This document shows positions 2,880 to 63,634 of a stretch of DNA of 64,000 nt, in pieces. The stretch is from positions 188,732-252,731 of the IMG/VR virus record IMGVR_UViG_3300037512_000782, one strand, 5' to 3'. Under the pieces are notes generated by a model that was given only the letters and a program-made list of their open reading frames with translations, was not told where the DNA came from and made no database searches. The DNA comes from a virus (taxonomy: Duplodnaviria > Heunggongvirae > Uroviricota > Caudoviricetes). Each line of letters opens with the position of its first letter. Position 1 is the first letter of the stretch. The position numbers and the translations under genes were made by a program.

Positions 2880-2916
2880 CAAGGGGTTCGGCTATTGCCG
2901 AGCCCCTTTCTTTTTG
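2880..2916 (+). terminator. intrinsic terminator after vWA gene
   Basis: AAGGGGTTCGGC-tatt-GCCGAGCCCCTT hairpin with T-rich tail. Confidence 0.55.
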
Positions 2917-2926
2917 CTATATTTGT
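2912..2926 (+). promoter_or_regulatory. host-like promoter box TTTTGCTATATTTG (Bacteroidetes-type -7 element TAnnTTTG)
   Basis: Ends 5 nt before ATG 2931, suggesting a leaderless mRNA. Related boxes at 6803-6815, 8058-8070, 16347-16360, 19977-19990, 26262-26276, 28099-28117, 32896-32913, 36487-36500, and on the minus strand at 41878-41893. Confidence 0.5.
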
Positions 2927-2930
2927 TGGC

Positions 2931-3938
2931 ATGAATGAAGACATGACTATCAAAGGTGGCCAGTACATGCCGTTTCGTTCGTCCGTAATCATGGACATGA
3001 ATGGCAATGTATCTGAAGTCCACAACATGAACGACTGGATCAAGGACACGAAGACTCGCGTCCTCAATATCACCCACGATGACTTGGACGGAGCAGTAGC
3101 TGGTATCGTTGTGCGCAACGTGTATCCGGCTTGCATCACTGTCCGTACGAACTACAGCGGTCAAGTGTATCGTGACGCCGTCGACGCTATCTCGAAGCCT
3201 GAGACCTATGACGCTATCATATTCAGCGACTTCAGCCCGGACGACAATATGATCGACGCCGTACACGCTGTACGCAAGCCGTACTTGGTAATCGACCATC
3301 ACCAGACCGCCATCGTGCGACCAGATGATCCGTATGGCGAATATTTCGTCAAGGAAGGCCGCTGTGGCGCTTTGCTGTGCTATGACTACTTCAAGGGCAT
3401 GGCTGACTTGGAAAAGCTCTACCAGCTGTGCGTGGTGACGAATGACCACGATCTGTGGCTGAGAAAGATGATTCCGATTTCGGACGATCTGAACACGCTT
3501 CTGTACGAATACGGCTACGAAGAATTTATGACAAAGTTCATGAACGGTCTTGAACCAGATGGTAGCCTTCCGGGCGACGCTCGTTCTATCCTCGCCAACC
3601 ACGAGCATGAGGTGGAAGAATACATAGCTACGTGCGTCCAGCACGAGCTTCCGTACAACGGCCACTACATCGAGTGCAACAAGTTCAATTCCGACATCAA
3701 CATGCGCATGACGCCGAAGTATGACTGGCTAGTCATGGCCGGAACCGACGGCGTAGATCCAGGAATGACAAAGCTGTCCTTCCGCACGAGGCGAAAGGAC
3801 ATCAATCTCGGTCAAGCTATTAAGGAATTTGGTCGAGGCGGCGGTGGCCATCCAGCCGCAGCTGGTCAAGTAATTCCTACTGCGGAACGTGATGAATTTA
3901 TCCAGCAGTTGGGCGACAAGCTGTTTGGGGGAAAATAA
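2931..3938 (+). CDS. DHH/DHHA1 family phosphoesterase (NrnA/RecJ-like)
   Basis: Motifs ITHDDLDGAVAG (DHH motif I), VIDHHQT (DHH) and GGGHPAAAG (DHHA1 GGGH). Start ATG 2931 chosen because the track ORF from 2742 overlaps the upstream gene. Host-like promoter box TTGCTATATTTG ends 5 nt before the ATG. Confidence 0.8.
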   Translation: MNEDMTIKGGQYMPFRSSVIMDMNGNVSEVHNMNDWIKDTKTRVLNITHDDLDGAVAGIVVRNVYPACITVRTNYSGQVYRDAVDAISKPETYDAIIFSDFSPDDNMIDAVHAVRKPYLVIDHHQTAIVRPDDPYGEYFVKEGRCGALLCYDYFKGMADLEKLYQLCVVTNDHDLWLRKMIPISDDLNTLLYEYGYEEFMTKFMNGLEPDGSLPGDARSILANHEHEVEEYIATCVQHELPYNGHYIECNKFNSDINMRMTPKYDWLVMAGTDGVDPGMTKLSFRTRRKDINLGQAIKEFGRGGGGHPAAAGQVIPTAERDEFIQQLGDKLFGGK

Positions 3939-3942
3939 GAAA

Positions 3943-3971
3943 AGCGGCTCGATTGAGCCGCCTTTTCGTTT
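3943..3971. terminator. bidirectional intrinsic terminator
   Basis: GCGGCTC-gatt-GAGCCGC followed by TTTTCGTTT, between convergent genes. Confidence 0.6.
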
Positions 3972-4428
3972 AGAATATCTCGGTTAAGTCTTCCGGATCG
4001 TCGAACAGCATGTCATCCTTCGATACGGTAATGTCAGACCAGTCATCGAAGTTAATTTCGTCCGCAGTCGGCTGCTTCGGTTGCTTTGTGGGGTTCGGCA
4101 GCGAATTCCTGAGAGTTTCGGTCTCCACATTCGCGGCGATATCGTCGACGAGTCCAGCATCTTCTGGAGCGACATTGACTTCTGGGCGAGCCGTCATTTC
4201 AGTCATTTCCATCAAACCGAACACGCCACGGATCGAGTTGATTTCGTCGCGTTCAGCTTGGGTGGCCGCTTGCGCTTCAAGCTGGGCGAGCGTGTCAACG
4301 AACGTGTTGTCGGAACCGAACTTGGCGACATAACGGCCACGGACGTTGTTGATGATGTCACGTTCGGCTTGTGTTGCTGAGACGGACTCCAGCATTGCGA
4401 GAGATTTCATGAAAGTCTGGTTGACCAT
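3970..4428 (-). CDS. hypothetical protein with internal repeat ATQAERD(I/E)IN
   Basis: 152-aa ORF, convergent with the DHH gene and sharing bidirectional terminator 3943-3971. Two copies of an ~12-aa repeat. Confidence 0.55.
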   Translation of the reverse strand: MVNQTFMKSLAMLESVSATQAERDIINNVRGRYVAKFGSDNTFVDTLAQLEAQAATQAERDEINSIRGVFGLMEMTEMTARPEVNVAPEDAGLVDDIAANVETETLRNSLPNPTKQPKQPTADEINFDDWSDITVSKDDMLFDDPEDLTEIF

Positions 4429-4512
4429 AGTATATCCTATTGATTCTGATTGCAGTTTATATAAAAATGCGTCACCGATTCCGGCGACGCATTGTGTATA
4501 TGGTATTTTAGA

Positions 4513-6747: not shown

Positions 6748-6819
6748 AACAGTTACCGTGATTGTTTGAATTCAGTTTATCACTTGTCGAGTTAACGGTT
6801 ATTTACTATATTGGGCGGT

Positions 6820-7793: not shown

Positions 7794-8057
7794 ATGGCTA
7801 AGGCACCAGAAATTCGCAGTTCTATTGTTTTCGATGAAGTAAATGCTACGTTAAACCGTGTTCAGCTAGTGATGAACAATAGCGATGACCCAGTCGAAGT
7901 GTTTGTAGCTGCCCAAGTGAGTAATGTATTGAGCAATGTTATTGCCGACGTAGGAATGCTGTTGATGAATCCGTCGCTCGACGCGACTGCGGAACAGTTC
8001 GTGAAGGCGCTCAAAAAGCAGAATTCTGAAGAAAATCCCTTGCCAGAGGACAGGTGA
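7794..8057 (+). CDS. hypothetical protein
   Basis: 87-aa ORF, tightly packed with the upstream gene. Confidence 0.45.
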   Translation: MAKAPEIRSSIVFDEVNATLNRVQLVMNNSDDPVEVFVAAQVSNVLSNVIADVGMLLMNPSLDATAEQFVKALKKQNSEENPLPEDR

Positions 8058-8107
8058 TTTGCTATATTGCATAGCACATCAAAATGAACATCTAACAAGG
8101 AAATCTT

Positions 8108-8330: not shown

Positions 8331-8383
8331 TCGGTTGTAAAATTTCATAAACGGTGTACAAATCACTAAATAATTGCTATATT

Positions 8384-9465: not shown

Positions 9466-10206
9466 ATGACAGCAAAAGCGATTCGTGATCGGTTTCGTGA
9501 TGAATACCATCGTGCTAAACTCGCAATACCAACCCGTGACGTAGAAGCGGTCTACGTAGAGCAAGCCAAGAAGGGCAACAAGGCCGCACTGCGAATGCTT
9601 GTAAACAAGTACATTCCGTTCTTGTACAAGATGGCGAAGAAGCTCAGCGACGCCTCGTACAATCTGACCGAGGATGAAATGGTGAACGCTGCCGTGTTCG
9701 GTATGCAGAAGGCCGTGGATGCTTTTGATCCGACGCTGGGCATCGCCTTCTATACGTACTATGCGCCGAAGGCCATGAACGAAATGCGCAAGGCTGGCTT
9801 CGATAGCTTGCTGGTGCATCGACCGGAAAACCAGCTCAAGTCCAAGGACGTAAACAAGGTGTCCGTGGCGATGGTCGATATCGAGAAGCGCAACGACCAC
9901 GAGCTGTCCATCATGGATAGGCTGTCTAGCGGAATCGCCACCGATCAAGAGACCAAGGACAATGAGAACAAGGCCCTCGTTGACGAGTTCATGTCTCTGC
10001 TTCTCCCTACTGAACATGACGTAATGAGCCGTATCTACTTGTATGACGACGATGACGTGACTCTTCGCAGCGTAGGCACCGACCTCGGCGTGTCTCACGA
10101 ACGAGTACGCCAGCTCAAGGCGTCCGCTATCCGCCGCATCCATAATACTGCGAAGTACCATGACATGATGGCTGAACAAGCATATCTCCACAACGAGGCG
10201 ATATGA
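9466..10206 (+). CDS. phage-encoded RNA polymerase sigma factor, sigma-70 family
   Basis: Region-2-like segment LVNKYIPFLYKMAKKL ... GMQKAVDAFDPTLGIAFYTYYAPKAMNEM. Classic region 4.2 HTH at TLRSVGTDLGVSHERVRQLKASAIRRI. Confidence 0.8.
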   Translation: MTAKAIRDRFRDEYHRAKLAIPTRDVEAVYVEQAKKGNKAALRMLVNKYIPFLYKMAKKLSDASYNLTEDEMVNAAVFGMQKAVDAFDPTLGIAFYTYYAPKAMNEMRKAGFDSLLVHRPENQLKSKDVNKVSVAMVDIEKRNDHELSIMDRLSSGIATDQETKDNENKALVDEFMSLLLPTEHDVMSRIYLYDDDDVTLRSVGTDLGVSHERVRQLKASAIRRIHNTAKYHDMMAEQAYLHNEAI

Positions 10207-13552: not shown

Positions 13553-13644
13553 GGATTACTCCTAAGCAATTAGTACAACAAGTTTATAACATTTTCAATC
13601 CCACGATTATATAAACTGCGTACATACAACAACGGATATACGAT

Positions 13645-16083
13645 ATGAGCGTAGAAACTCAAAAAACAGCGTTAAAACAGGTTCTGGACACGATTTTCGA
13701 ACTGAAGCCTAGCCAGACCTACCAGCTGTCGCTGGATGACTACAATGTACTGAAGAATCGAGAAGCTGTCGTTGCCTACTTCGTGATCGGCGATGGCGAG
13801 CGTCTTAGCTGGTACATTATTGCGCAGAATAACGCCGTGTATCTTGTAGACAAGGAACGCCAAGTCAATACGCTATTGGCTCGTATGAATCCGGATACCG
13901 AAGAATTGACATTCGCCAACAACCTCGAAGAAGTCATGCAAGATATCTTGCTGCGCAGTACGTCGACGCTCGGCGCAGTCATCAACAATATCATTTCTAG
14001 CACTTTCTTCAATGCGCTGGAAATGTCAGATGAATATTACGAAGTGTATCCGAATGTATCCGACTATTTTGGTGAATTTTATGTAAAGTTTGGCGATAGC
14101 GAACCGACTCGAATTGACGATCCAGCAATTTCTCAAATCATGAATAAGTCGATTACCAATATTGACCGCATTGCGCTTGATATTTTCGGTAAGCAGCAGA
14201 AGTCGATGATTCCGCTATTTCATGTGACGATTGATGATGGCATCTTGGCGTTCGGACGATATACAAACCAGCAAGAACGCGGATATACAGCAAACTTCCC
14301 GTCTAAAGACGATGCTGATTCCGTCGTTACGCCGACGAAACAAGCAAACGCTTCGCTTATGAGTAATACGGTTCACCGCGAGCACATCGATAAGCTGATT
14401 AACAACTCGTCTGAATCGCATGACTATCTGCGTGAATGGATCGAGAAAAGCGTAAAGAGCTTTACCAAGGTGGACAAGATCAAGGGCATGAATTCATTCG
14501 AACCCGGCCATCGCGTCATTCTCGGTAAAATCGATACGATTAAGTGGCTTACACAGAATCCAGAAATTATTGAAAAGAATGGATTGAAGACGGCAACCAA
14601 GTTCGCTATTGATAAGTTCCCGACCATCTATACGCCGCATTCCGGAACGATCCATCTAGGCATTTCTGAATCGACGCTACGTACCGTCCAGCTTACTTAT
14701 AGCGTAGACGGTATTGGAACTATCATTGAAATCCACATTAAGCCAGACCCGAAATTTATTACGAACAAGCGTGACTTGAGCGATCCGAGGAACTTCTTTG
14801 TAATTTCCAACCAGAACGACGTCGTCATTCAGTACAACACCGGAAACAAGACGCTGGCTGCAGCTAAAGTTTCACAGAACGTCGCCTTCGTGGTTGCATG
14901 GCGAATGATCGTTATCGCATTGGGTATCAAGGACGTGTATGACGTGGCCCAGATGTGTACGACGAAGGCTCGCGGTAGTGCGGCGACGGAATTGGATACG
15001 TATGGCGCTACCGTCATGTACAATATGACGCTGCATGGCGAATACAAGGAAAATCCAGTTGCCAAGGTCACCGTGTCATCTCGTACAAACCAAAGCGACG
15101 CCAAGAACGACAATGTCGTTGATGCTCGCCGCATGATTATCGAAATGACGACGAACTTCGAAAAGAAGGTTCTTGAATGTAAGACGAATGTTATCCAGTA
15201 CGTACAGAATACTACCGAATCTGGTGAGACGGAAGTTACTCCGGAAACGGCTACAAAGCTTTATACGTACGGCAACGGCGAAAGTATCTATGAAGAAGCA
15301 AAGGAAGACTTGCTGCTTACGTCGAAGGCGAAGAAGCTGCGAGTGGCTGCACCGAATCCGAGTGACTGTCTCGGCGCTGTCATGCACCGTCAGATCGAAA
15401 CCCATATCAACAAGGGAGTTACTGAAATGGAGCGCCAGCTGAACTTGGGTAAGACGAATACACTTAGCCGCATAAATTCCGCAGTCCGTTTCCAGCCGGG
15501 ATCGCCGCTTGGTAAGGCATTGATTGGCGTACGAAATGCAATCATCAATACGTTCGCACCGCTTGTCGGAACGGACGCAAGACCGGGTATCTTCACAAAG
15601 TTCAACATCAAGGCTGACGACTACCATAACGTGTCGAAATTCATTACCGTCAACGGTTCGTCGACGCCAGTTCCAGTTATGGCCGAAATGCGAATTGACA
15701 ATGGCTATGCTGGTGTATTCTCCGTGGCAAGAGCTGCGGACGGAACTCCAGTAGTGTATGCGTCATTCCCTGGCGATGCGTACCGCGCCGTCGGAAAGTT
15801 TGCTGGAACTCCAGAAGCGCCAGAACTTAGTGATGAATTCTTGCAGTGGTATCTCGTCCAGTGCTTTGAGGACAATACTCTGGCCAAGGACATCGCGATG
15901 ACCCTTGACAACCCAGAAAACGAGGACGCCATCCGTATTCCTCCGCGCATTGCAAAGTTCTTCGAACGCGAAGAAGAACCGCAAGAAGTCGAAGAACAAG
16001 AAGTGCCGGAAGAGCTCAACTTCGACCATGCGCACGATCCAGCCGATAAATCGAGCTATGAGCCAGATGAAGAATTGACATAA
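13645..16083 (+). CDS. large hypothetical protein (812 aa)
   Basis: Long intact ORF with acidic C-terminal tail (EEPQEVEEQEVPEE). No recognisable catalytic motif. Confidence 0.65.
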   Translation: MSVETQKTALKQVLDTIFELKPSQTYQLSLDDYNVLKNREAVVAYFVIGDGERLSWYIIAQNNAVYLVDKERQVNTLLARMNPDTEELTFANNLEEVMQDILLRSTSTLGAVINNIISSTFFNALEMSDEYYEVYPNVSDYFGEFYVKFGDSEPTRIDDPAISQIMNKSITNIDRIALDIFGKQQKSMIPLFHVTIDDGILAFGRYTNQQERGYTANFPSKDDADSVVTPTKQANASLMSNTVHREHIDKLINNSSESHDYLREWIEKSVKSFTKVDKIKGMNSFEPGHRVILGKIDTIKWLTQNPEIIEKNGLKTATKFAIDKFPTIYTPHSGTIHLGISESTLRTVQLTYSVDGIGTIIEIHIKPDPKFITNKRDLSDPRNFFVISNQNDVVIQYNTGNKTLAAAKVSQNVAFVVAWRMIVIALGIKDVYDVAQMCTTKARGSAATELDTYGATVMYNMTLHGEYKENPVAKVTVSSRTNQSDAKNDNVVDARRMIIEMTTNFEKKVLECKTNVIQYVQNTTESGETEVTPETATKLYTYGNGESIYEEAKEDLLLTSKAKKLRVAAPNPSDCLGAVMHRQIETHINKGVTEMERQLNLGKTNTLSRINSAVRFQPGSPLGKALIGVRNAIINTFAPLVGTDARPGIFTKFNIKADDYHNVSKFITVNGSSTPVPVMAEMRIDNGYAGVFSVARAADGTPVVYASFPGDAYRAVGKFAGTPEAPELSDEFLQWYLVQCFEDNTLAKDIAMTLDNPENEDAIRIPPRIAKFFEREEEPQEVEEQEVPEELNFDHAHDPADKSSYEPDEELT

Positions 16084-16090
16084 TCGTGTA

Positions 16091-16155
16091 AAAACCTATA
16101 TTTGGGTCATTATGCGCAAAATAACCAGTTAAAAACCTATATTTGGTACATTATG
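16091..16155 (+). repeat. ~25-bp imperfect direct repeat x2 (AAAAACCTATATTTGG(G)TCATTATG / ...TACATTATG)
   Basis: Two copies separated by ~15 nt, upstream of the Thg1-like gene. Confidence 0.6.
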
Positions 16156-16363
16156 AGCAATATAGACAACATCAAGGAAACGAAGGCCCAGAGGGCCGCT
16201 AGGATTGCCGGGACTGGCAACGGTGCGACACTTCGCACCAGACTGGTTCTGGATAGGAAGAAATACTCACGGAAAATCAAGCATAAAGGACAATCCATCG
16301 CAAGCGCGATGGATTTCGCTTTTATAGTGGACAATTTTGTGGGTTATTGCTATATTGTCCATT

Positions 16364-18915: not shown

Positions 18916-18955
18916 GGCCCTAATTATAGTATTATTTTAGGGCGCTGTCAATTCC

Positions 18956-19942: not shown

Positions 19943-19994
19943 GTCGAGCCTCCTTTTATAGCCGTTTATAAAATCTTTTACTATATTGGTTGTT

Positions 19995-21185: not shown

Positions 21186-21219
21186 TATATAAACTGCATA
21201 TACCAAACTGAGAGTGTAT

Positions 21220-26151: not shown

Positions 26152-26279
26152 CGGAATAGTCCTTGTTAAAGATGAATGTTTCGCGGAAATATAGCAAATG
26201 AGTGTGAGTCTGGCAAGCCCAAGCAGAAATAGTTAAAAAGTAAGCTATGTTGTTCGAAGGCTTTATTATATTTGGCGGC

Positions 26280-26477
26280 ATGTTGTGGAATGTATTGCTA
26301 ATATTGCTGATTTTGACGATAATATCGGTGTATGGGATTGCCATCGTCAAGCTGGTTTGCTATATTAAGACCCAGAAACGGGTCGACCGTCTGGAACACA
26401 CAGTCGGCGACCTATCACAAAAACTCACCGAAATTATGAAGGACACTAATGAGAGCAACGACGGAAACCTACAATAA
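26280..26477 (+). CDS. small membrane protein (alternative start 26247)
   Basis: Product is MLWNVLLILLILTIISVYGIAIVKLVCY..., a TM helix. A TATATTTG box ends 5 nt before ATG 26280. Confidence 0.4.
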   Translation: MLWNVLLILLILTIISVYGIAIVKLVCYIKTQKRVDRLEHTVGDLSQKLTEIMKDTNESNDGNLQ

Positions 26478-27875: not shown

Positions 27876-28098
27876 TTCTACTTAAACTGTGTAGAATCCA
27901 TCTATGTATGGCTTCGAGGACGTTGCCCATCAGTGGAGTCATGCCATGCATCATCCTCGTCTTGACGGCGATCCATCGTTTCTTCATGAGGCTATAAAAA
28001 TGGTGGCATGCGCCTATGGCAAACGCTATGTATATGGCCATAAAAATTTTTTCACGCATATTTCACAAATTATATCAAAAACCTCTTGACGCTGATGA

Positions 28099-28117
28099 GT
28101 GTTATTACTATATTTCG
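28099..28117 (+). promoter_or_regulatory. host-like promoter box GTTATTACTATATTTCGTG upstream of cca
   Basis: TATATTTC ends ~5 nt before ATG 28122. Confidence 0.5.
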
Positions 28118-36490: not shown

Positions 36491-36534
36491 TATATTTTTC
36501 AATAACTTCACATTAAACACAAAGGAAATCCACT

Positions 36535-38414: not shown

Positions 38415-38417
38415 GTA

Positions 38418-41875: not shown

Positions 41876-41910
41876 GCCGAAATATAGCAAAATTCCCTAT
41901 ATGCGACTAC
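41876..41910 (-). promoter_or_regulatory. host-like promoter of the island operon (minus strand TTTTGCTATATTTCGG)
   Basis: Reverse complement of 41880-41895 gives TTTGCTATATTTCGG, ending ~8 nt before the P7 start codon at 41870. Confidence 0.5.
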
Positions 41911-43125: not shown

Positions 43126-43593
43126 GATATGTACACTATGGATATTTTTCTTAATATTACTAATCTATGATTAGAATGTCAAATGAGATGAGCCCCCATA
43201 CCCCCAGCCCACCTAAATTTTTGAAGAATATAGTAGGGGTATAATATGTAAATTTATTTTTATTTTTATGTACCCTGAAAAATAATCATGAAATGGACAG
43301 ACCATTTGCTGCTGGTGATACGAGCGGTGCTTGTCGTGCGAAGTCACTCATGGAACCCCAGGTTAACAAGAACAAGATTGCACTGCTCAGATGTGCCTTA
43401 CGGCGATTTAGCCTAGACTAACTTAGCCCTGGCTAACCTTGTGATCCTCGGCTAACATCGGACAGACTGCTCGCCTACAGATCCCCTTACGGCGTTTTGG
43501 ACTGGCACGAGTTCGGCGGGACTGCTTCCCAAGTGTATGCAAGCTTTGTCAAGCAACGACGCTTGATACGATACACCACTAACCAAAAGGGTT

Positions 43594-44527: not shown

Positions 44528-44581
44528 GGACTGGCACGGTTCCGACGGGGCTGCCGACGGCGGATATTCTGACTATGTAAA
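44528..44581 (+). promoter_or_regulatory. phage-specific promoter/stem-loop cassette (PeSL-like), copy b
   Basis: GACTGGCAC, then N8 CGGGGCTGCCGACG, then N14 TATGTAAAC, then CCAAAGGAGA and ATG 44599. Confidence 0.6.
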
Positions 44582-44598
44582 CCAAAGGAGATTTCAAA

Positions 44599-45150: not shown

Positions 45151-45267
45151 GGTCGCTATACGGTGTCAGACTGGCACGGCGATGGCGGGACTGCTACGCA
45201 GTCCTATTTTTATTTTGTAAGCCGATGGGGCTTACGAAAACGCCATTCTCAAAAGGAGATACGAATT

Positions 45268-46307: not shown

Positions 46308-46361
46308 GACTGGCACGGCGACGGCGGGACTGCCTCGACTGGATATTTTTTCTATGTAAAC
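46308..46361 (+). promoter_or_regulatory. PeSL-like cassette, copy d (upstream of radC-like gene)
   Basis: GACTGGCAC GGCGACGG CGGGACTGCCTCG ACTGGATATTTTTTC TATGTAAAC, then AAAGGAG and ATG 46376. Core to TATGTAAAC spacing is exactly 15 nt. Confidence 0.65.
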
Positions 46362-47015: not shown

Positions 47016-47069
47016 GACTGGCACGACGGCGACGGGACTGCCTCGACTGGATATTTATTATATGTAAAC
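47016..47069 (+). promoter_or_regulatory. PeSL-like cassette, copy e
   Basis: GACTGGCAC ... CGGGACTGCCTCG, N15 with TATT, TATGTAAAC, AAAGGAG. Confidence 0.65.
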
Positions 47070-47552: not shown

Positions 47553-47833
47553 AATAACACGGCATGGGCTACGCCGAGGAGTAGCCCACCTTTTTATTTG
47601 GGACTCTATAACATGGCTAAATCAAGCAAAATTATCACGGTGCGCACCACTAAGCGCGTGGGCGGTCGATAATGAAAGTCGATATCGTATACATCAAGTT
47701 GACCCCAGTCGAGGGCGCGTGGTGGCGCAAGATCGCTAGCAAGAAGAAGTAGACTGGCAAGAGCTTGGCGGGACTGCTCCCCAAGCTTATTACATCTATG
47801 TAAGCAGTTGAACCCCTAACCAAGGAGATTGAT

Positions 47834-48804: not shown

Positions 48805-48931
48805 GGTAGCCCCCTTTTTTGTAGGGATCGATCCGGACGACTGGCACGACGGCGACGGGACTGCTCCGCTGGTGTATTATATTCATGTAAGCAAGAGAGC
48901 TTACGGCTACACCACTCACAAGGAGTTTTAT

Positions 48932-49545: not shown

Positions 49546-49637
49546 GTGATCGATCCGGACGACTGGCAGTCCAGCGACGGGGCTGCCTCTACTGGATATT
49601 TTATTTATGTAAACAAGTTCAACCAAGGAGTTATCCA

Positions 49638-50120: not shown

Positions 50121-50420
50121 GGGCTGCCATGATGACCAAGATAATTAAAGTCAAGGTGAACGGACGGATAGAAGATATTACCGTGACCGTGGGCATGAGA
50201 AAGGTGGAACCGCAACCGCAACGGTCTCGCTTCCGTCTGCCCAAGTTAGGAATGTTGTTTCACTGGTAAGGGGCGCAAGCCCCTTTTTTTCGTATAGGCG
50301 CTTTACAATTCGCACGGATCGATCGATAATAACTGTAGAGACTGGCACCGCGACGGCGGGACTGCTCTCGACATGTATTATATTTATGTAAACGATACAC
50401 CACTTAACAAGGAGTTCAAC

Positions 50421-51101: not shown

Positions 51102-51374
51102 ATGGCCAAGCTCTATTATCTCGAAAACTCGGTTCCTACATACAACGACCAAGCTAAATATTTTGTTAGTGGTAGCGATGCTAGTGGCGAACACTACAAC
51201 GGTGCGAGCGATTTGCTGAACGCTCGATTCTTCTTTGACGAGGAAGAAGCGAAGCGCTGTATTCACACGGCAAATAATTGGTGGCAGAAGTACGACTTCA
51301 AAGTCAAGTCCATTGAAATCACCGAGCTTCAAAGCTTGATGGCGAAGAAGAAAGATTCATTCATACTTATCTAA
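51102..51374 (+). CDS. hypothetical protein
   Basis: SD AAGGAGG; 90 aa. Confidence 0.5.
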   Translation: MAKLYYLENSVPTYNDQAKYFVSGSDASGEHYNGASDLLNARFFFDEEEAKRCIHTANNWWQKYDFKVKSIEITELQSLMAKKKDSFILI

Positions 51375-51379
51375 CTGGA

Positions 51380-51426
51380 TGGACGACGACGGGGCTGCCT
51401 CGCCGTCGTATTTTTGTTGTACGAAC
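51380..51426 (+). promoter_or_regulatory. PeSL-like cassette, copy j
   Basis: GACGACGAC-GGGGCTGCCT-CGCCGTCGT: covarying stem around the conserved loop. N15 then TGTACGAACC, then AAGGAG. Confidence 0.6.
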
Positions 51427-51734: not shown

Positions 51735-51744
51735 CAGACTGACA

Positions 51745-51791
51745 TCCGGACGGCGAGGCTGCCTCGTCGTCCTATTCCTTCTATACAACCT
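51745..51791 (+). promoter_or_regulatory. PeSL-like cassette, copy k
   Basis: GGACGGCGA-GGCTGCCT-CGTCGTCC, then TATTCCTTC TATACAACC, then AAGGAG. Confidence 0.6.
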
Positions 51792-51806: not shown

Positions 51807-52280
51807 ATGAAACTGGAATATAAGGTGGACAAGGTATCGTTGACCATCGTGAAAGTGCCGTCTGATTATCGTGAATGTTCTGTTTGTGGACACTGGAAAC
51901 CGTTTAGCGAGTTCTGTAACCAGCAAGGAGTAATGACACGCACGAACTGTTCAGACTGCTACAATATGCCGTTGGAAGATATGCGAGCGCTGTCCAAGCA
52001 GACAAGCGATTTTATACGCGCCCATCGTGTGGACATTTACAACATTTCTGAACGTGTCACTACTGGTAGCCAGTTGATGACCAAGAGAGCTTTCTTGGAA
52101 CAGATAACCGAACAGCTAAAGGATATCGGCGACAACGAGCTTGTGCATGCGGTATATGATACCTATGACCCAGACGGCTATTCATGTAAGGAACCATTGA
52201 ATAACTTGTCGGTAAACACAAAGCGCACCAAGATAGAACTGGATGTTCCGACAGACATCGTCCAGGTCACTCTCTGCTAA
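51807..52280 (+). CDS. hypothetical protein with Cys4 zinc-ribbon-like motif
   Basis: CSVCGHW ... CSDCYN. Cassette k. Confidence 0.5.
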   Translation: MKLEYKVDKVSLTIVKVPSDYRECSVCGHWKPFSEFCNQQGVMTRTNCSDCYNMPLEDMRALSKQTSDFIRAHRVDIYNISERVTTGSQLMTKRAFLEQITEQLKDIGDNELVHAVYDTYDPDGYSCKEPLNNLSVNTKRTKIELDVPTDIVQVTLC

Positions 52281-52285
52281 CTGGC

Positions 52286-52332
52286 TACTGGACGACGGGG
52301 CTGCCTCGTCGTCCTATTATTTCTATACAACC
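52286..52332 (+). promoter_or_regulatory. PeSL-like cassette, copy l
   Basis: GGACGACG-GGGCTGCCT-CGTCGTCC, then TATTATTTC TATACAACC. Confidence 0.6.
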
Positions 52333-52908: not shown

Positions 52909-53027
52909 AGAATGGGGCGAGTGCCCCATTTTTTATTTGTTCGCCGATCGATCCGGACGACTGGCACAGCAGCGACGGGGCTGCCTCGACTGGATATTTT
53001 ATCTATGAAACCAACAAGGAGATTACC

Positions 53028-53993: not shown

Positions 53994-54608
53994 ATGCAAA
54001 GACTTTATAAGTTCTACATCGCCCACGCACACGGCTGCTTTATGGATCCAAGCGAACGCTATCTTGCTCGCTCTATGTTCTCGTGTGAAGATACTGCTGA
54101 CACCCAGCTGCATCACAGTGCGCAAGAGTTTCTGCGCAGCCATGTGGGCTGTATCCATTTCAGCGAGCCACAGACCATTCTCGAATCTAAGGCCGACGAC
54201 GAGTGCAAGGTGCTTTGGAAGAAGCACGAGGACGACATCGAGGCTATCCAAGTCAAGTACACGGAGCTGCTTCGCAAGGCTTCAGAGAAGCTTCCTCGCA
54301 GTGCGCTGATGTTCGAGAGCGATGAGTGCAACAAGCTCATTAACGAGCGAGCCAACGAGTACCGCAAGGTTGACGACGAGTACAGCACCGCTCGCGACGC
54401 CGTCTATGCCAAGTGCGAAGAGGCCAAGAAAGAATGGCGTATCTACAAGGCCGAGGATGTGGACGCATTTATTAAGAAGTGCCAGGCCTACAATAAAGAA
54501 AAGAAAAAGTCTGGGCTGCAATTCTATTGCACCATCGACCGAAAGAAAGATAACAGTGGCTTCCCCTATGTGGACATGGGCTACTGCAAGATGCAGGTCG
54601 AAGACTGA
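53994..54608 (+). CDS. hypothetical protein
   Basis: Cassette o plus SD AAGGAG. Confidence 0.5.
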   Translation: MQRLYKFYIAHAHGCFMDPSERYLARSMFSCEDTADTQLHHSAQEFLRSHVGCIHFSEPQTILESKADDECKVLWKKHEDDIEAIQVKYTELLRKASEKLPRSALMFESDECNKLINERANEYRKVDDEYSTARDAVYAKCEEAKKEWRIYKAEDVDAFIKKCQAYNKEKKKSGLQFYCTIDRKKDNSGFPYVDMGYCKMQVED

Positions 54609-54672
54609 CCGATCGACGACGGGGCTGCCTCGCAGCCCTATTTTATTTTTGTAACATCAACAAGGAGCTTTT

Positions 54673-55131
54673 ATGAATACGAAATATAGCATTGCCAGTG
54701 CGGATGGATTCCAGACCACCAGCGGACAAATTGTCGAATTCAAGTTGGGCAGCTCGCCGACAATCGAGGCACTGCGAGCCGACCTCGAAACTTTGTCTAA
54801 AGAAGCGCCCATCAAGGTCTGCTTGCTGGATTTGACGGCTGCGGTGCTGCGAGCCGAACAGCTCTACACCGACAAGACGGTCACTGGGCTGGTGATTGAC
54901 CCAACACAGAAGGTATCAAGCTCGTGGGACTTGTTCAGCGACGGCACTCATCGAGAAATCTGGGAAGTGTGGACACGCATCCGCAAGGACGGCAAGTGGG
55001 TCTTTGGTACTAGCTACTTGTTCGAGTGCGAACGGCTGCCGACCGACTATAGCAAGTCTATGCTACACGCTGACTACCTCGTGTGGGGAATTCATGAGTC
55101 TGACGACATGTGGGGCAAGGTCGCTGGCTAG
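54673..55131 (+). CDS. hypothetical protein
   Basis: Cassette p plus SD AAGGAG. Confidence 0.5.
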   Translation: MNTKYSIASADGFQTTSGQIVEFKLGSSPTIEALRADLETLSKEAPIKVCLLDLTAAVLRAEQLYTDKTVTGLVIDPTQKVSSSWDLFSDGTHREIWEVWTRIRKDGKWVFGTSYLFECERLPTDYSKSMLHADYLVWGIHESDDMWGKVAG

Positions 55132-55211
55132 ACTGAAACAAGATCGACGGGGCTGCCACGCAGCCCTATTTCTTTTATACAAACCCAATCACAATCAACC
55201 AAGGAGTTATT

Positions 55212-55706: not shown

Positions 55707-55761
55707 TGACTGGCACACTTGACACGGGACTGCCATTTAGTTATATTTAATATATACAAAC
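55707..55761 (+). promoter_or_regulatory. variant cassette r carrying sigma70-like TTGACA-N17-TATATT
   Basis: GACTGGCAC ACTTGACA CGGGACTGCCATT TAGTTATATTTAATA TATACAAACC AAGGAGA. Near-duplicate cassette w at 59207-59260. Confidence 0.55.
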
Positions 55762-56040: not shown

Positions 56041-56280
56041 ATGAACGGTGTTCTTATTACTGCCATTATCGTTGTCGGTATCGTCGCCATCGTCGTCGCT
56101 TCGCTCGTGTATGCGAGCAAGTTCAAGTGTAAGCACGAATGGGGCGAAGGTCAAGCGGTCACTCGTGAGCTCGAAGATGTTTACGGCCACACGAAGAAGC
56201 TGCTCTTTATGATGTGCCGTTGCAAGAAGTGCGGCTGCTACCGTTCGTTCGACACGAGGCCGACGGATCAACAATACTAG
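56041..56280 (+). CDS. small membrane protein with zinc-ribbon cysteines
   Basis: TM helix ITAIIVVGIVAIVVASLVYA, then CKHEW...CRCKKCGC. Track start 56035 is GTG. Confidence 0.45.
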   Translation: MNGVLITAIIVVGIVAIVVASLVYASKFKCKHEWGEGQAVTRELEDVYGHTKKLLFMMCRCKKCGCYRSFDTRPTDQQY

Positions 56281-56333
56281 ACTGGCTCCAGATCGGCGGG
56301 GCTGCCTCGCCGATCTATTCCTTTTATACAAAC
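56280..56333 (+). promoter_or_regulatory. PeSL-like cassette, copy s
   Basis: GACTGGCTC CAGATCGGCG-GGGCTGCCT-CGCCGATC (perfect 8-bp stem), then TATTCCTTT TATACAAACC, then AAGGAG. Near-identical stems in copies z (60491-60544), aa (61504-61556) and cc (63232-63284). Confidence 0.65.
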
Positions 56334-57417: not shown

Positions 57418-57511
57418 TCCGGAGACTGGCATAGCTCCAGCGGGACTGCCTCGCTGGAGTATTTATATGGTGTAGGGCAATGAAGCTCTACGGTACTAGG
57501 GAGTAACCATT

Positions 57512-58288: not shown

Positions 58289-58426
58289 TTTGACCATAGG
58301 TAAGCTCCAGGCTCCGCTCGAAAGGGCGGAGCCTTCTTTTATGCGTGATCGATCCGGATGACTGGCTGGAGATCGACGGGGCTGCCACCGGAAGATATTT
58401 ATTTTATGTAAAACAGAGGAGTTATT

Positions 58427-58690
58427 ATGACCGACGAACAAATCGCACAGTATAAAAAGCGCACAGAGAACTATCGCAAGTTCGCTATCACCGCACAAGA
58501 GCTTTATGACAAGCTCGGAGAATTTATTAAGCAAGGGCACGGCGACGCCATGTTCGATGTCTCGGACAACTGTGGTGGCTCGTATGTATTGGGCCGAAAC
58601 GATATTTACCTCGTCGAACCCAATAAAGAAGTCGAGAACAGTATCGAAGTGTTCGGCAAGTGGATATCCCTCGGCGAAGAATGTCCGTAA
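58427..58690 (+). CDS. hypothetical protein
   Basis: Cassette u plus SD AGAGGAG. Confidence 0.5.
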   Translation: MTDEQIAQYKKRTENYRKFAITAQELYDKLGEFIKQGHGDAMFDVSDNCGGSYVLGRNDIYLVEPNKEVENSIEVFGKWISLGEECP

Positions 58691-58751
58691 GACGGCGGGG
58701 CTGCCTCGCCGTCCTATTCTTTCTATACAACCTCAACAAGGAGAATTACTT

Positions 58752-59159: not shown

Positions 59160-59270
59160 CCAAAGGGGCGCAAGCCCCTTTTGTTATTTGTAGATATAAC
59201 TTTACAGACTGGCACTATTGACACGGGATTGCCTAAAAGTTATATTATATATGAGAACCAAGGAGACATT

Positions 59271-59669
59271 ATGAATTGGCCTTTTGAATCCAAGAATGTA
59301 AAGAAAATGAACGAAACCGCCTATAACAAGGTGGCGAACTATATGCAGTGCCACGCAGCGGAATTTATGAATGGCGATGAGGCTACCCACAAAAGGGCGC
59401 AGTCTATCGCTGACGCTATCAACGCGAAAGATAATTCCAAGTGCATCGTGGACACCGACAAGGCTCTCGTGGACGATGTGCTTCAGTGCTTGGCCTCTAT
59501 GGGCGAGCATATCAGCAACGGCTACCCTAACGCATTGGTGGCGTGTGGCTATGACCCATCCATCGTGTTCATGGTAGGCGATACCGCAGAAGACGGCCAG
59601 TCCAAGTGCGTCTATCTCCGTCTCACCATCCTCGACTGGCCCAAGAAGGGCGGGGCTGCCTCGGCCTAG
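59271..59669 (+). CDS. hypothetical protein
   Basis: ATG 59271 after variant cassette w and SD AAGGAGA. Confidence 0.5.
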   Translation: MNWPFESKNVKKMNETAYNKVANYMQCHAAEFMNGDEATHKRAQSIADAINAKDNSKCIVDTDKALVDDVLQCLASMGEHISNGYPNALVACGYDPSIVFMVGDTAEDGQSKCVYLRLTILDWPKKGGAASA

Positions 59670-59701
59670 TATTGGTTCTATACAACCAAGGAGAAACACT
59701 T

Positions 59702-60109: not shown

Positions 60110-60175
60110 GACTGGAACCGGAGCGGCGGGGCTGCCTCGCCGTTCTATTCACTTTATACAAACAAAGGAGCTTTT

Positions 60176-60490: not shown

Positions 60491-60557
60491 GACTGGAACT
60501 GGATCGGCGGGGCTGCCTCGCCGATCTATTCACTGTATACAACCAAGGAGATTTAAG

Positions 60558-61163: not shown

Positions 61164-61505
61164 ATGGACGGTAAATGGGTATTGATAGTAATCGGCGTAT
61201 TATTTTTAGCGGTCATTATCGCTATCGTCGTTGACTGCTTGCGTAATACAAAAGAAAGTGAACCAGAGCCAGAGCCGTATGTGCAGCCACGCGCTGGAGA
61301 GGTGTCGCCGAGTAACTGGGCCACGTCGTCGTTCTCGCCGTCGGTGTTTGTCGGTATGTCTCCGACCATTTATTTTGTGTGCGGTGCTTGCGGTGGCGAG
61401 ACCCAGTTAAAGGTGCCTATGGCTACGGTTCCGTATGACGGCGGCCTACGCCTACGGTGCCAGTGTTGCGGCAAGCCGAACAGACTGCCGATCCGGCGGC
61501 TCTGA
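61164..61505 (+). CDS. membrane-anchored zinc-ribbon protein
   Basis: TM helix VLIVIGVLFLAVIIAIVV, then CGACGG...CQCCGKPN. SD AAGGAGG. Confidence 0.5.
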   Translation: MDGKWVLIVIGVLFLAVIIAIVVDCLRNTKESEPEPEPYVQPRAGEVSPSNWATSSFSPSVFVGMSPTIYFVCGACGGETQLKVPMATVPYDGGLRLRCQCCGKPNRLPIRRL

Positions 61506-61574
61506 CTGGCACTGGATCGGCGGGACTGCCTCGCCGATCTATTCTCTTTATACAACCTCAACAAGGAGACACCA

Positions 61575-62189: not shown

Positions 62190-62230
62190 GATTAGGTAGG
62201 TATTGACAACCTACCTAATTTTATTATATT
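62190..62230 (+). terminator. intrinsic terminator
   Basis: TTAGGTAGGT-attgacaa-CCTACCTAA followed by TTTTATTATATTTCTTTTT. Confidence 0.65.
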
Positions 62231-62466: not shown

Positions 62467-62718
62467 ATGGCCAGCAAGCAAGTCGAATCTATGAAAAAGA
62501 CAATCGCCGAGGCGGTTGAAAAATTTAACTCCAGCCACGACAAGAAGCTCGAATATGTAGGCGAGGAACCGCCGAGCGGCGTGGTAAAGTACGCGGCAAA
62601 ATACAAGTTCGGTGAAAAGCTTGTCTACTTGATGGGCTGCCAGGATAGGCCGTTCTTCGGTTGCACTGGCAAGGACGACCTCGAATTCATGGACGAGTTC
62701 CTTGAGACACTGACATAG
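62467..62718 (+). CDS. hypothetical protein
   Basis: ATG 62467 after SD AAGGAGA. Confidence 0.45.
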   Translation: MASKQVESMKKTIAEAVEKFNSSHDKKLEYVGEEPPSGVVKYAAKYKFGEKLVYLMGCQDRPFFGCTGKDDLEFMDEFLETLT

Positions 62719-62784
62719 CGACGGCGGGACTGCTCCGCAGTCCTATTGTTTCTATACAACCAACAACCAAAAGGAGATTAAACC

Positions 62785-63228
62785 ATGAGAAAGCATAGCA
62801 GAGACCCACGTCGTTGTTTCATCGTATATCTTACGACAACAGACAGCGAAGACGGTACGACCGTATCGAACGACGGCTTCAACGTATTACTTACCAAAGA
62901 CGAGGCTGCCATCGTAGATAAAGCAGCCGACGCACAGCGCGGCGACTTGGTGCTGAAGTATTTCAATCAGAAGATCAAGAACGCCGTCATCCAGTGGTTC
63001 AATGAATCGCCTCACACCTTGCGTAAAACGCTCGATGAATATTGCTTTGGTTACGACTACGAAAACGAAGCCGACAAAGGCCAGAGCGAACTCGATTACG
63101 CTTTGTCCAAGTTTACCGCAAGGTGTGTCGTGTTGATTTCGGATGGTATCGCTAGTCAGAATGGGTTCAATACATTGGATGTTAACGTCACAGCTACATC
63201 CGATTACGCCGATAGCTTGTTCGACTAG
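62785..63228 (+). CDS. hypothetical protein
   Basis: Cassette bb plus SD AAAGGAGA. Confidence 0.5.
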   Translation: MRKHSRDPRRCFIVYLTTTDSEDGTTVSNDGFNVLLTKDEAAIVDKAADAQRGDLVLKYFNQKIKNAVIQWFNESPHTLRKTLDEYCFGYDYENEADKGQSELDYALSKFTARCVVLISDGIASQNGFNTLDVNVTATSDYADSLFD

Positions 63229-63306
63229 CGACTGGTGGATCCTCGGCGGGGCTGCCTCGCCGATCTATTCCCTTTATACAACCAACAACCAAAAGGAGAA
63301 ACAACA

Positions 63307-63537
63307 ATGTTCAAATTTCTTTGCGCTCTCTTTCTCGCTGGCGTTCTTGCTGGCCTCTACATGTTCTCTTCGGATTCTGCGAAGGCTTCTGTCAAGAAAG
63401 CTGGAACGGAACTTGTGCGTGACGCCGCCGACAACGCGACGGAAGCCGCGCTCGACCAGACCGAAAAGGCTGGCAAGAAGATGATCTCTCGTGTGAAGGA
63501 CATCAGAAAGGCCAACAACGACAAGTTCAAGAAGTAG
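63307..63537 (+). CDS. small membrane or secreted protein
   Basis: ATG 63307 after cassette cc. Signal-anchor MFKFLCALFLAGVLAGLYMF. Confidence 0.45.
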   Translation: MFKFLCALFLAGVLAGLYMFSSDSAKASVKKAGTELVRDAADNATEAALDQTEKAGKKMISRVKDIRKANNDKFKK

Positions 63538-63589
63538 ACTGGATCCGGCCCGGCGGGGCTGCCCTGCCGGGTTATTCTTTCTACACAAC
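63537..63589 (+). promoter_or_regulatory. PeSL-like cassette, copy dd
   Basis: GACTGGATC CGGCCCGGCG-GGGCTGCCC-TGCCGGG, then TTATTCTTTC TACACAAC. Confidence 0.55.
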
Positions 63590-63590
63590 A

Positions 63591-63618
63591 AACAATCAAC
63601 AATCAACAATCAACAATC
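63591..63618 (+). repeat. (AACAATC)x4 heptanucleotide tandem repeat in 5' leader
   Basis: Four perfect AACAATC units lie between the cassette -10-like element and the AAAAGGA RBS of the last gene. Confidence 0.8.
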
Positions 63619-63634
63619 AAAAGGACACAATCCA

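Follow-up and report, generated by a model that had tools for sequence, protein, structure and literature searches.

Promoter boxes, a repeated cassette element and Shine-Dalgarno usage in a genome segment of a rumen jumbo phage

How transcription and translation are started in a jumbo phage is the question raised by a 64,000-nucleotide stretch of a Caudoviricetes genome (IMG/VR record IMGVR_UViG_3300037512_000782, positions 188,732 to 252,731), the whole of which is called the window here. In its first 43 kb, TATATT-type boxes stand a few nucleotides before start codons, and in the remainder small genes follow a repeated element and a strong Shine-Dalgarno (SD) site. An earlier reading of the letters alone (the original prediction) took the boxes for the -7 element of Bacteroidetes promoters, divided the genome into an SD-independent and an SD-dependent part, and suggested that the phage may alter ribosome preference during infection. 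Our analysis indicates that the observation is real and statistically strong and that the partition is overstated; the pattern fits known phage and host biology, and no new translation mechanism is indicated. The best explanation, to which we assign a probability of about 60%, comprises three classes of expression signal (I, II and III), modes of initiation that depend on transcript architecture, and Fibrobacter as the most likely host. The window is ~64 kb of a jumbo phage genome (>200 kb), as judged from its 449-aa NAPRTase, which has identical copies on metagenomic contigs of 0.2-1 Mb and relatives of 56-75% identity on IMG/VR viral contigs of 203-355 kb; the label 'ruminal_MAG' of related contigs points to the ruminant gut.

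Box-abutted starts and Shine-Dalgarno sites

The class I signal is built around the 10-mer TTGCTATATT, which occurs nine times exactly in the window (both strands, 128 kb in all), where by our own estimate ~0.1 occurrences of a 10-mer would be expected by chance; with up to two mismatches it occurs 74 times, versus 43.7 +/- 6.6 in shuffled sequences. The complete layout is gTTG(A/C)C(A/G), 17 nt, then TTGC-TATATT(T). Its -35 hexamers are TTGACA (four times), TTGCCA (three times), TTGACG, TTGCCG, TTGTCG, TGGACA and TTTACA, and the -10 hexamer TATATT is preceded by a TGn-type extension (TTGC or TTAC). All the parts of a sigma-70 promoter are thus present (a TTGACA-like -35, 16-18 nt, TGn and a TATAAT-like -10), and relatives show the same layout; position -8 of the box is nearly always T, as in TATATT, and TATAAT occurs only twice. 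The class I and class I-type boxes of the window are as follows, leaderless and leadered being predictions.

585..613, plus strand: TTTACA-17-TATAAT; leadered, ATG 631 17 nt downstream, AGAGG SD
2895..2923, plus strand: TTGCCG-17-(TTGC)TATATT; ATG 2931 at 7 nt, leaderless DHH phosphoesterase
6784..6812, plus strand: TTGTCG-17-TATATT; ATG 6820 at 7 nt, first gene of the sigma-factor operon
8040..8068, plus strand: TTGCCA-17-(TTGC)TATATT; leadered, ATG 8108, AAGGA SD
8355..8383, plus strand: TGTACA-17-(TTGC)TATATT; GTG 8390 at 6 nt, or ATG 8384 directly abutting
16075..16102, plus strand: TTGACA-16-TATATT(TG), first of two tandem AAAAACCTATATTTGG copies; ATG of a 6-codon mini-ORF (open reading frame) at 9 nt
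16138..16143, plus strand: second tandem TATATT(TG) box; ATG 16153 at 9 nt, 82-aa ORF
16328..16356, plus strand: TGGACA-17-(TTGC)TATATT; ATG 16364 at 7 nt, leaderless Thg1-like gene
18923..18951, minus strand: perfect TTGACA-17-TATAAT; ATG 18915 at 7 nt, leaderless GIY-YIG homing-endonuclease-like gene 17266-18915
19959..19987, plus strand: TAGCCG (weak -35)-17-(TTAC)TATATT; ATG 19995 at 7 nt, leaderless UDP-galactopyranose mutase
26188..26216, minus strand: TTGCCA-17-(TTGC)TATATT; leadered, ATG 26151 (NAPRTase) 36 nt downstream, AAGGA SD
26267..26272, plus strand: TTATTATATT(TG) box; ATG 26280 at 7 nt, leaderless 65-aa ORF
26338..26366, plus strand: TTGCCA-17-(TTGC)TATATT; inside ORF 26280-26477, upstream of HD-domain gene 26449
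28086..28114, plus strand: TTGACG-17-(TTAC)TATATT; ATG 28122 at 7 nt, leaderless CCA-adding enzyme
32882..32910, plus strand: TTGACA-17-(TTAC)TATATT; ATG 32918 at 7 nt, leaderless
36468..36496, plus strand: TTGACA-17-(TTGC)TATATT; leadered, ATG 36535, AAGGAA SD
41881..41909, minus strand: (TTGC)TATATT; ATG 41870 at 10 nt, near-leaderless, first gene of a membrane-protein array
62203..62230, plus strand: class I-type TTGACA-16-TATATT inside region B (defined below); leadered, ATG 62253, AAGGAG SD

At eight genes the start codon, always ATG, lies exactly 7 nt past the hexamer: seven on the plus strand behind TATATT (2931, 6820, 16364, 19995, 26280, 28122 and 32918) and 18915 on the minus strand behind the perfect TTGACA-17-TATAAT. 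Three near cases (8390 with GTG at 6 nt, 16153 at 9 nt and 41870 at 10 nt) bring the total close to the ten instances originally counted. The geometry does not depend on annotation, as the next ATG is exactly 7 nt downstream at 8 of the 41 TATATT hexamers on both strands, where ~0.6 would be expected. Two of the starts are also placed by hidden Markov model alignments: residue 7 of Glf, the mutase, aligns to model position 2, which puts its N-terminus at ATG 19995, and residue 9 of the Thg1-like protein aligns to profile position 3, which puts its N-terminus at ATG 16364. The arrangement of TTGCTATATT, 6-7 nt and ATG recurs in four related IMG/VR jumbo-phage contigs of 203-355 kb, where TTGCTATATT or TGCTATATTT ranks with the commonest 10-mers. 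A literature search with the box sequence returned only unrelated eukaryotic papers.

Since the -10 hexamer lies 6-7 nt before the ATG, transcription should start at or next to its A and yield mRNAs that are leaderless or have a leader of 1-2 nt, as the original prediction had deduced from the same geometry. We propose that class I is a host-type, sigma-70-like promoter and that, for roughly half of the transcription units in the first 43 kb, it stands 6-7 nt before the ATG; its start would fall at, or 1-2 nt before, the A of the ATG, rendering the first gene leaderless, and the downstream operon genes, together with the units whose class I box is followed by a leader and an SD (631, 8108, 26151 on the minus strand, 36535 and 62253), would use ordinary SD sites.

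SD strength was measured as the duplex energy of positions -20..-3 with CACCUCCUUU in region A (1-43.2 kb, 53 curated genes) and region B (43.6-63.6 kb, 40 plus-strand genes). Gene calls and start choices were made in this analysis, and for some region B starts the SD was taken into account; the counts of hexamers and of AAGGAG, which need no annotation, are free of that circularity. The genes fall into three tiers of median energy (dG, kcal/mol), listed here with their controls.

Box-abutted or SD-less starts, region A, n=12 (the twelfth, 43125, is without a box and was included solely for its absent SD): median -1.6; 0/12 at -4.5 or better
Other region A genes, n=41: median -5.8; 83% at -4.5 or better; P = 2e-16 versus controls; typical sites AAGGA, GAGG and AGGAG
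Region B genes, n=40: median -8.3; 39/40 (98%) at -7.3 or below; P = 1e-22 versus controls
Internal ATG controls, n=684 (A) and 199 (B): medians -2.4 to -2.7; 19-20% at -4.5 or better

The box-abutted genes do lack an SD, just as first described. Region B sites are stronger than those of the SD genes of region A (P = 8.5e-9), with a spacing of 4-9 nt, and between 43.4 and 63.7 kb AAGGAG occurs 41 times on the plus strand and never on the minus strand, the next ATG lying 5-9 nt downstream at 34 of the 41. What had been said of the HYPERPLASTIC region is confirmed; the exact hexamer is found on 31 of the 40 genes. The expected difference in SD strength between gene classes exists as a gradient, but the SD genes of region A also stand well above the controls. 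The proposed partition fails on this point: only 12 of the 53 genes of the first 43 kb are SD-less, and 41 have SD-like sites. Because SD sites are used throughout and only promoter-proximal genes are free of them, the genome is not split into SD-independent and SD-dependent parts. Initiation would instead be leaderless where a promoter abuts the ATG and SD-led where a leader or an upstream gene is present; as the two modes would follow from transcript architecture, no ribosome switch is needed.

Such a combination has precedents. A leaderless first gene in the operon with SD sites elsewhere defines the 'group C' genomes of GeneMarkS-2, described mainly for Actinobacteria and Deinococcus-Thermus (bioRxiv 10.1101/193490), and lambda cI transcribed from pRM is the classic leaderless mRNA of a phage (PMC10491246). 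Like group C, the window has a Pribnow-type box 6-8 nt before the AUG of the first operon gene, which has no SD, and its internal and leadered genes use an SD at 5-9 nt; unlike group C as described, the architecture occurs here on a Fibrobacter-labelled contig as well as in a jumbo phage of the rumen and includes a strong -35 and a TGn extension, the start sites of the window being predictions in this comparison. Programs that look for an SD when they call genes would place the starts of the leaderless genes wrongly.

The likeness of the box to a Bacteroidetes element is partial. The Bacteroidetes sigma-AB promoter consists of TTTG at -33 and TAnnTTTG at -7 with a nearly invariant G-5, and in Flavobacterium johnsoniae 4-5 nt separate the -7 element from the start site (PMC6847099). 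The window box shares T-12, A-11, T-8 and T-7, usually T-6 (5/8 window cases and 13/13 cases in relatives), a TTG near -33/-35, and a distance of 4-5 nt between the 8-mer and the presumed start. It differs in that G-5 is present in only 4/8 window cases and 4/13 relatives' cases, that the upstream hexamer is a full TTGACA or TTGCCR, that the TTGC extension is conserved, and that one promoter matches the E. coli-type consensus perfectly; the full 8-mer TAnnTTTG is found at only 2/15 boxes, and TANNTTTG is under-represented across the window (15 vs 28 expected). The context also differs, sigma-AB promoters going with genes that have no SD, whereas SD-like sites are pervasive in this genome (83% of the non-leaderless genes in region A and 98% of the genes in region B), unlike in Bacteroidia and their phages. 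The match to TAnnTTTG first reported is therefore sound for T-12, A-11, T-8 and T-7, but not for the full 8-mer or for G-5. At 16085-16155, AAAAACCTATATTTGGNCATTATG is duplicated in tandem, and both of its boxes are among the few full TAnnTTTG matches.

A candidate host with the same dual design

The endolysin of the window (328 aa) belongs to a narrow family, with 183 matches in 5.8 billion proteins, and its only named homologue, P0387 (329 aa, 48% identity), is labelled Fibrobacter sp. and has a cellular context, its neighbours being an opp ABC-transporter, an outer membrane beta-barrel protein, a GH9/CelD_N cellulase and ribulose-phosphate epimerase (rpe). On the chromosomal contig that carries it, the Fibrobacter-labelled L158, rpe (10869-10890, minus strand) is preceded by ttTTGCTATATTtgggccATG, that is, by the exact phage box TTGCTATATT, 6 nt and ATG, and the GH9 cellulase gene (3996-4010, plus strand) is preceded by TATATTctaggtATG, with TATATT 6 nt before the ATG; other genes of this contig have AAGGAG or GGGGG SD sites. 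TATATT thus stands at exactly -12..-7 in 2 of 11 genes, for which we estimate a chance probability of ~3e-6. Three further endolysin homologues on long contigs were considered as host loci and set aside, the contigs being phage.

About 37% of the genes of Fibrobacteria are reported to be SD genes, with the anti-SD CCUCCUUU (PMC10783764), and their SD logo is weak but detectable (PMC3155529). To judge from the contig, leaderless mRNAs may be common in Fibrobacter, of which we found no report in the literature searched. Because Fibrobacter belongs to the Fibrobacteres-Chlorobi-Bacteroidetes (FCB) superphylum, an FCB-group host is plausible, with Fibrobacter as the best candidate. The host first suggested may thus be right at the level of the superphylum, by way of a Fibrobacter contig with the same design, but neither as a member of the Bacteroidetes nor by way of the -7 element. 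To Fibrobacter itself we give about an even chance. The dual initiation of the phage would then mirror that of its host, on whose chromosome the same dual design appears. If the link is true, these phages are candidates for infecting a key cellulose degrader of the rumen, and Fibrobacter promoters would be of the form TTGC-TATATT(T), often leaderless and intermediate between canonical sigma-70 and the Bacteroidetes -7 element; the motifs may also aid the host assignment of such phages.

The same architecture could belong to a phage of a sigma-70/SD host outside the FCB group (rumen Clostridia, Lachnospiraceae or a Negativicute), the Fibrobacter link being a coincidence of horizontal transfer; we regard this as doubtful. 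All six named cellular homologues of Glf (50-53% identity) come from Lachnospiraceae or Eubacteriales, the CCA-adding enzyme fits best to PRK13299, which we take to be the Bacillus-type model of this enzyme, and the endolysin has unassigned extensions on both sides of Amidase_2. Endolysins that are long and have several domains are found more often in phages that infect Gram-positive bacteria, and TGn-extended -10 promoters with strong AAGGAG SD sites are typical of Firmicutes. Against such a host stand the exact design of TTGCTATATT, 6 nt and ATG on the Fibrobacter contig and the T preferred at position -8 of the box; furthermore, metabolic genes are kept across the phage family at 56-75% identity, so the similarity of a gene to its donor says little about the present host. 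Frequent leaderless genes are, moreover, predicted for only 3.4% of Firmicutes genomes (bioRxiv 10.1101/193490).

The repeated element of the cassette region and a probable late motif

Region B contains small genes, mostly without a recognisable family, and its distinguishing feature is the class II element: 30 copies on the plus strand and none on the minus strand between 43.5 and 63.6 kb, each of 54 nt and aligned without gaps. A phage-specific promoter in this region had been part of the original prediction, and a separate, lineage-specific control element with a strong SD is indeed present. Class II precedes ~30 of the 40 genes; the other 10 are each coupled to the gene before them. Its consensus is GACTGGCA-N5-CGGCGGGRCTGCCTCG-N6-TATT-N5-TAYRYAAAC, followed by an A/C-rich stretch, AAGGAG and, 5-9 nt later, ATG. 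The copies, all on the plus strand, are as follows.

43500..43553: copy 1, divergent 3' half; downstream ATG 43600
44529..44582: SD, then ATG 44599
45169..45222: hairpin GGACTGC-tac-GCAGTCC; ATG 45268, ArdC-like anti-restriction protein
46308..46361: ATG 46376, RadC-like
47016..47069: ATG 47083
47752..47805: stem AAGCTTGG/CCAAGCTT; ATG 47834
48839..48892: ATG 48932
49561..49614: ATG 49638
50340..50393: ATG 50421
51373..51426: ATG 51444
51737..51790: 11-bp hairpin, -20.5 kcal/mol; ATG 51807
52279..52332: ATG 52351
52959..53012: ATG 53028; one boundary of the two-cassette segment missing from related contig L130
53422..53475: hairpin register 2; ATG 53490; one boundary of the cassette missing from related contig L142
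53925..53978: ATG 53994; other boundary of the L130 and L142 indels
54603..54656: ATG 54673
55131..55184: ATG 55212
55708..55761: class II/class I hybrid, TTGACA at -11..-6 and TATATT at +12..+17; ATG 55777
56280..56333: 12-bp hairpin, -21.3 kcal/mol; ATG 56354
57424..57477: ATG 57512, GP88-family protein
58360..58413: ATG 58427
58679..58732: ATG 58752
59207..59260: class II/class I hybrid, TTGACA ... TATATT, core GGGATTGCC; ATG 59271
59634..59687: ATG 59702; SD starts 6 nt after conserved purine +26
60110..60163: ATG 60176
60491..60544: 13-bp hairpin, -22.3 kcal/mol; ATG 60558
61504..61557: ATG 61575
62708..62761: ATG 62785
63230..63283: ATG 63307
63537..63590: last copy; leader with (CAATCAA)x4 (63591-63634), AAAGGA, ATG near 63635

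Overlap between the 5' end of the element and the stop codon of the preceding gene is frequent (TAG-ACTGG or TGA-CTGG), for example at 47749-47757, 56277-56285 and 60107-60116, and a conserved GATCGATCCGGA(C/T) extension stands before five or six copies.

Scans of metagenomes and genomes added ~90 copies from related contigs, giving 120 unique copies together with those of the window. Numbered from the C of CTGC as position 0, the near-invariant positions are A-21 C-20 T-19 G-18, C-5 G-4 G-3 G-2, C0 T1 G2 C3, T14 A15 T16 and A28 and A29; T17 is found in 102/120 copies, a pyrimidine at +25 in 118/120 and a purine at +26 in 119/120. A GC-rich hairpin of -12 kcal/mol or better is formed by ~47% of the copies and the rest fold weakly; it exists in two registers, both ending just before TATT, the next 12 nt are T-rich (median 7 T), and the variable stem columns covary (z ~3). 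A looser pattern gave single chance matches only in IMG/VR, and the element is therefore absent from that collection.

In our explanation, class II would be a compact, lineage-specific unit of terminator and promoter before each small cassette. Its hairpin ends just before a T-rich stretch and therefore looks like a terminator or attenuator; TATTnw (+14..+19) would be the -10-like part, the Y/R step at +25/+26 the start, and CGGGRCTGC and ACTG, at -31..-23 and -47..-44 from that start, a possible site for a phage sigma factor or an activator. A start past +26 is unlikely because the SD begins 6 nt after +26 in the shortest copies. ACTG, CGGGRCTGC and TAT(T) do not fit TTGACA/TATAAT; only the two hybrid copies (55708-55761 and 59207-59260) carry TTGACA ... 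TATATT, in a collinear frame, and three class I-type promoters lie inside the cassette region (55742, 59241 and 62225). One gene of the window encodes a factor that may read class II or class III promoters:

9466..10206, plus strand: sigma-70-family factor, 246 aa, regions 2 and 4 above Pfam cut-offs

For this factor, tblastn returned only five weak, unannotated gut-virome fragments, and no relatives were found in IMG/VR.

Class II would, in addition, be a recombination point. In relatives of 85-95% identity, entire cassettes of the window are missing or replaced, and the junctions lie in the element: L130 is without window 53021-53940, two cassettes, and its 48-nt junction matches both flanking elements; L142 is without window 53469-53961; and in L153 the RadC cassette (46376-46972) is replaced by unrelated sequence. 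L142 also has tandem 'empty' pairs of the element with no gene between them, at 7597/7662 and 8345/8411 (7575-7720 and 8323-8470), which is what recombination between flanking elements would leave. These patterns indicate that class II elements probably act as points of cassette gain and loss, like the promoter-early stem-loops (PeSLs) of T4-type hyperplastic regions, cassette elements with demonstrated promoter and terminator activity (PMC2839356, PMC4122927). Like PeSLs, class II is a repeated intergenic composite in one orientation amid small genes of mostly unknown function, with a stem-loop (in part of its copies), then promoter-like boxes, then SD and ATG at its 3' end and a 5' end often overlapped by the upstream stop codon, and related genomes differ by cassettes with junctions in it. 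In PeSLs the stem-loop is followed by an early promoter of the E. coli sigma-70 consensus (PMC2839356, PMC4122927). The conserved core of class II (ACTG ... CGGGRCTGC ... TAT), by contrast, does not conform to that consensus and shares sequence with the hairpin; stable folding is limited to about half of the copies, and the element is described here from its sequence. Unlike the T4-type phages that have PeSLs, the window is without T4 core genes. A PeSL-like, non-sigma-70 cassette element, together with cassette shuffling, is the most distinctive feature of this genome.

It is conceivable that class II is not a promoter and acts only as a terminator or attenuator, an RNA-processing site or a recombination site, the region being transcribed as a few long units from class I-type promoters (55742, 59241, 62225 and upstream ones); we consider this unlikely. 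The hairpins before a T-rich tract, with compensatory stem changes in two registers, would suit such a role, as would the class I-type promoters inside the region and the coincidence of the element with indel boundaries. The strongest conservation, however, lies beside or outside the stem (ACTG at -21..-18, TAT at +14..+16, Y/R at +25/+26, AA at +28/+29) and, with the rigid 54-nt spacing in 120 copies, suits an element that a protein complex recognises as double-stranded DNA; only the 5' half of the stem is invariant, a stable hairpin is absent from half of the copies, the two hybrids carry TTGACA and TATATT collinear with a promoter frame, and PeSLs, the closest analogue, are both promoters and terminators (PMC4122927).

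Three other readings of class II were rejected. TGGCAC-N5-CGGC resembles the GG-N10-GC of a sigma-54 promoter, but only 23/29 copies have the second G of GG and 16/29 the G of GC, and the bases that are in fact invariant (ACTG, CGGG, CTGC) differ from those expected of sigma-54. An N4-type hairpin promoter for a virion RNA polymerase does not fit an element of which about half of the copies have no hairpin, and there is no sign of such a polymerase. With TATACA as -10 and CTGCCT as -35, the key T at -7 is missing, and with the start moved 6-8 nt downstream the shortest copies (59634 and 60491) would lose part of their SD.

The class III motif, TATATAAACTGC, occurs exactly three times, each 22-25 nt before an ATG (4428 on the minus strand, 13645 and 21220), and (T/G)ATAAAC(T/G)G variants lie upstream of 6747 (minus), 13552 (minus) and the endolysin start 19942 (minus); the spacing to ATG is 18-25 nt at the four sites measured.

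4452..4463, minus strand: TATATAAACTGC, 23 nt before ATG 4428
6772..6783, minus strand: class III-like GTGATAAACTGA, upstream of ATG 6747, 744-aa protein
13579..13590, minus strand: class III-like GTTATAAACTTG, upstream of ATG 13552, 593-aa protein
13608..13619, plus strand: TATATAAACTGC, 25 nt before ATG 13645, 812-aa protein
19961..19972, minus strand: class III-like TTTATAAACGGC, 18 nt before ATG 19942, Amidase_2 endolysin with a strong AAGGAGG SD
21186..21197, plus strand: TATATAAACTGC, 22 nt before ATG 21220, 445-aa protein

As the genes behind it encode large unknown proteins and a lysis enzyme, class III is probably the signal of a late class. Its core TATATAAAC matches the TAYRYAAAC block of class II.

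In T4, middle promoters have a MotA box in place of the -35 together with a sigma-70 -10, and late promoters consist of TATAAATA, read by gp55. Class II resembles the middle layout in its -10-like TAT(T) and in a non-sigma-70 block ~27 nt upstream of the presumed start, where the box of an activator or appropriator would sit; class III (TATATAAAC) resembles the late layout as a single A/T-rich, -10-like box before probable late genes. No homologue of MotA, AsiA or gp55 was identified in the window, and the only sigma-like gene has regions 2 and 4, unlike in T4; the resemblance is one of layout only.

Ribosome preference, opposing evidence and the gene content of the window

In its strong form, the original prediction implies a host of the Bacteroidia such as Prevotella, with SD-blind ribosomes and boxes that are sigma-AB promoters, and a phage that makes these ribosomes SD-competent, for example by displacing bS21, which would allow its AAGGAG-led cassette genes, transcribed from phage-sigma promoters, to be translated. 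Bacteroidetes lack SD sequences and have SD-blind ribosomes (PMC6847099, PMC7797042), and in Bacteroidia this blindness is lifted in the absence of bS21 (PMC7797042, PMC9976891), so the mechanism is conceivable; a sigma factor is encoded in the window, the box has T at -8, -7 and usually -6 at a distance from the ATG that fits the F. johnsoniae spacing, and the only GTDB contigs with class II belong to a Prevotella genome. A stringent class II pattern in 185,579 GTDB genomes found three contigs only, all of 'MAG: Prevotella sp. ruminal_MAG_415' (MAG, metagenome-assembled genome), namely JBGVBD010000060.1 (L153), JBGVBD010000112.1 (L154) and JBGVBD010000118.1 (L152), which are 92-95% identical to window 45.9-57.4 kb; they are either bin contamination or a host clue that conflicts with the Fibrobacter evidence. 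The match, however, is co-binning of short phage fragments and not a physical link, and the NAPRTase of a relative is labelled Methanobrevibacter, evidently from a mis-binned phage contig, so the bin labels of short phage contigs are unreliable. Nor do the sites agree with such a host: the non-leaderless genes of the first 43 kb have SD-like sites too, G-5 is not conserved, and a strong canonical -35 (TTGACA or TTGCCR), TGn and one perfect TTGACA-17-TATAAT are present, whereas a bona fide Prevotella jumbo phage, the megaphage Lak-A1, used as a control, has an SD on 0/17 ORFs and Cellulophaga phages are reported to be SD-less. No ribosomal-protein or translation-factor gene was found in the window, and the Fibrobacter contig accounts for both modes without a switch. 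We therefore consider the strong form very improbable and, within it, a lineage with strong SD sites because its ribosomes are converted to SD competence, with bS21 removed or replaced, slightly more improbable; if true, this would be the first case of its kind in which a phage switches ribosome specificity. The suggestion that the phage alters ribosome preference thus finds no support, SD sites being used throughout and the candidate host contig mixing both modes.

Several points weigh against the explanation that we favour, namely three signal classes read in a Fibrobacter host. The gene calls and starts are our own, and the start sites of all three classes are read from sequence. The host assignment depends on one labelled homologue and one ~12-kb contig, the closest named cellular homologues of Glf are from Lachnospiraceae, and the only GTDB genome with class II is labelled Prevotella; tetranucleotide similarity did not discriminate between candidates, that to the Fibrobacter contigs being unremarkable (ranks 8th to 19th of 82). 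About half of the class II copies are without a stable hairpin, no sigma-70 -35 can be recognised in the element, and its -10 (TATTnw) is partial; a phage factor could be required, or promoter function might be absent altogether. Taken as we propose, the window offers a testable map of expression signals for an uncultured family of rumen jumbo phages, composed of host-type leaderless promoters, a cassette element that would regulate and shuffle ~30 small genes (ArdC-like and RadC-like ones included) and a probable late motif.

The base composition of the window is ~50% G+C; neither tRNA genes nor Rfam family matches were found in the 64 kb, and neither structural nor replication core genes. 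Megablast of two window segments gave no nucleotide match to GenBank phages, and tblastn of the 812-aa protein (ATG 13645) gave no match; the only distant phage homology seen is that of a VWA protein, ~30% identical to Ackermannviridae-type phages. Region A has auxiliary and regulatory genes, which include this VWA protein, the DHH phosphoesterase (ATG 2931), LemA and SPFH/flotillin genes, the Amidase_2 endolysin (ATG 19942, minus strand) and the UDP-galactopyranose mutase Glf (ATG 19995, plus strand), and the following enzymes of tRNA end repair and NAD salvage.

16364-17236, plus strand: Thg1-like tRNA-His guanylyltransferase
28122-29378, plus strand: CCA-adding enzyme
23002-26151, minus strand: NAD-salvage cluster of NAPRTase, an NMNAT-Nudix fusion and an isochorismatase-family nicotinamidase

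The NAD-salvage genes and the two tRNA end-repair enzymes form an auxiliary set common to other jumbo phages. Two distantly related GIY-YIG/phrog_20046 homing-endonuclease-like genes (41974-43125 and 17266-18915, both on the minus strand) lie in patches of lower G+C; in the related contig L080 (3792-4013) window 41973-43381 is wholly missing, with 222 nt in its place, and the gene at 41974-43125 is therefore a mobile insertion. Next to it on the minus strand is an array of small membrane-protein genes (37451-41870) whose first gene starts at ATG 41870; it contains at least two paralogue groups (39828 and 40283; 40786, 41334 and 41870), and most of its later members start with a hydrophobic N-terminal segment.

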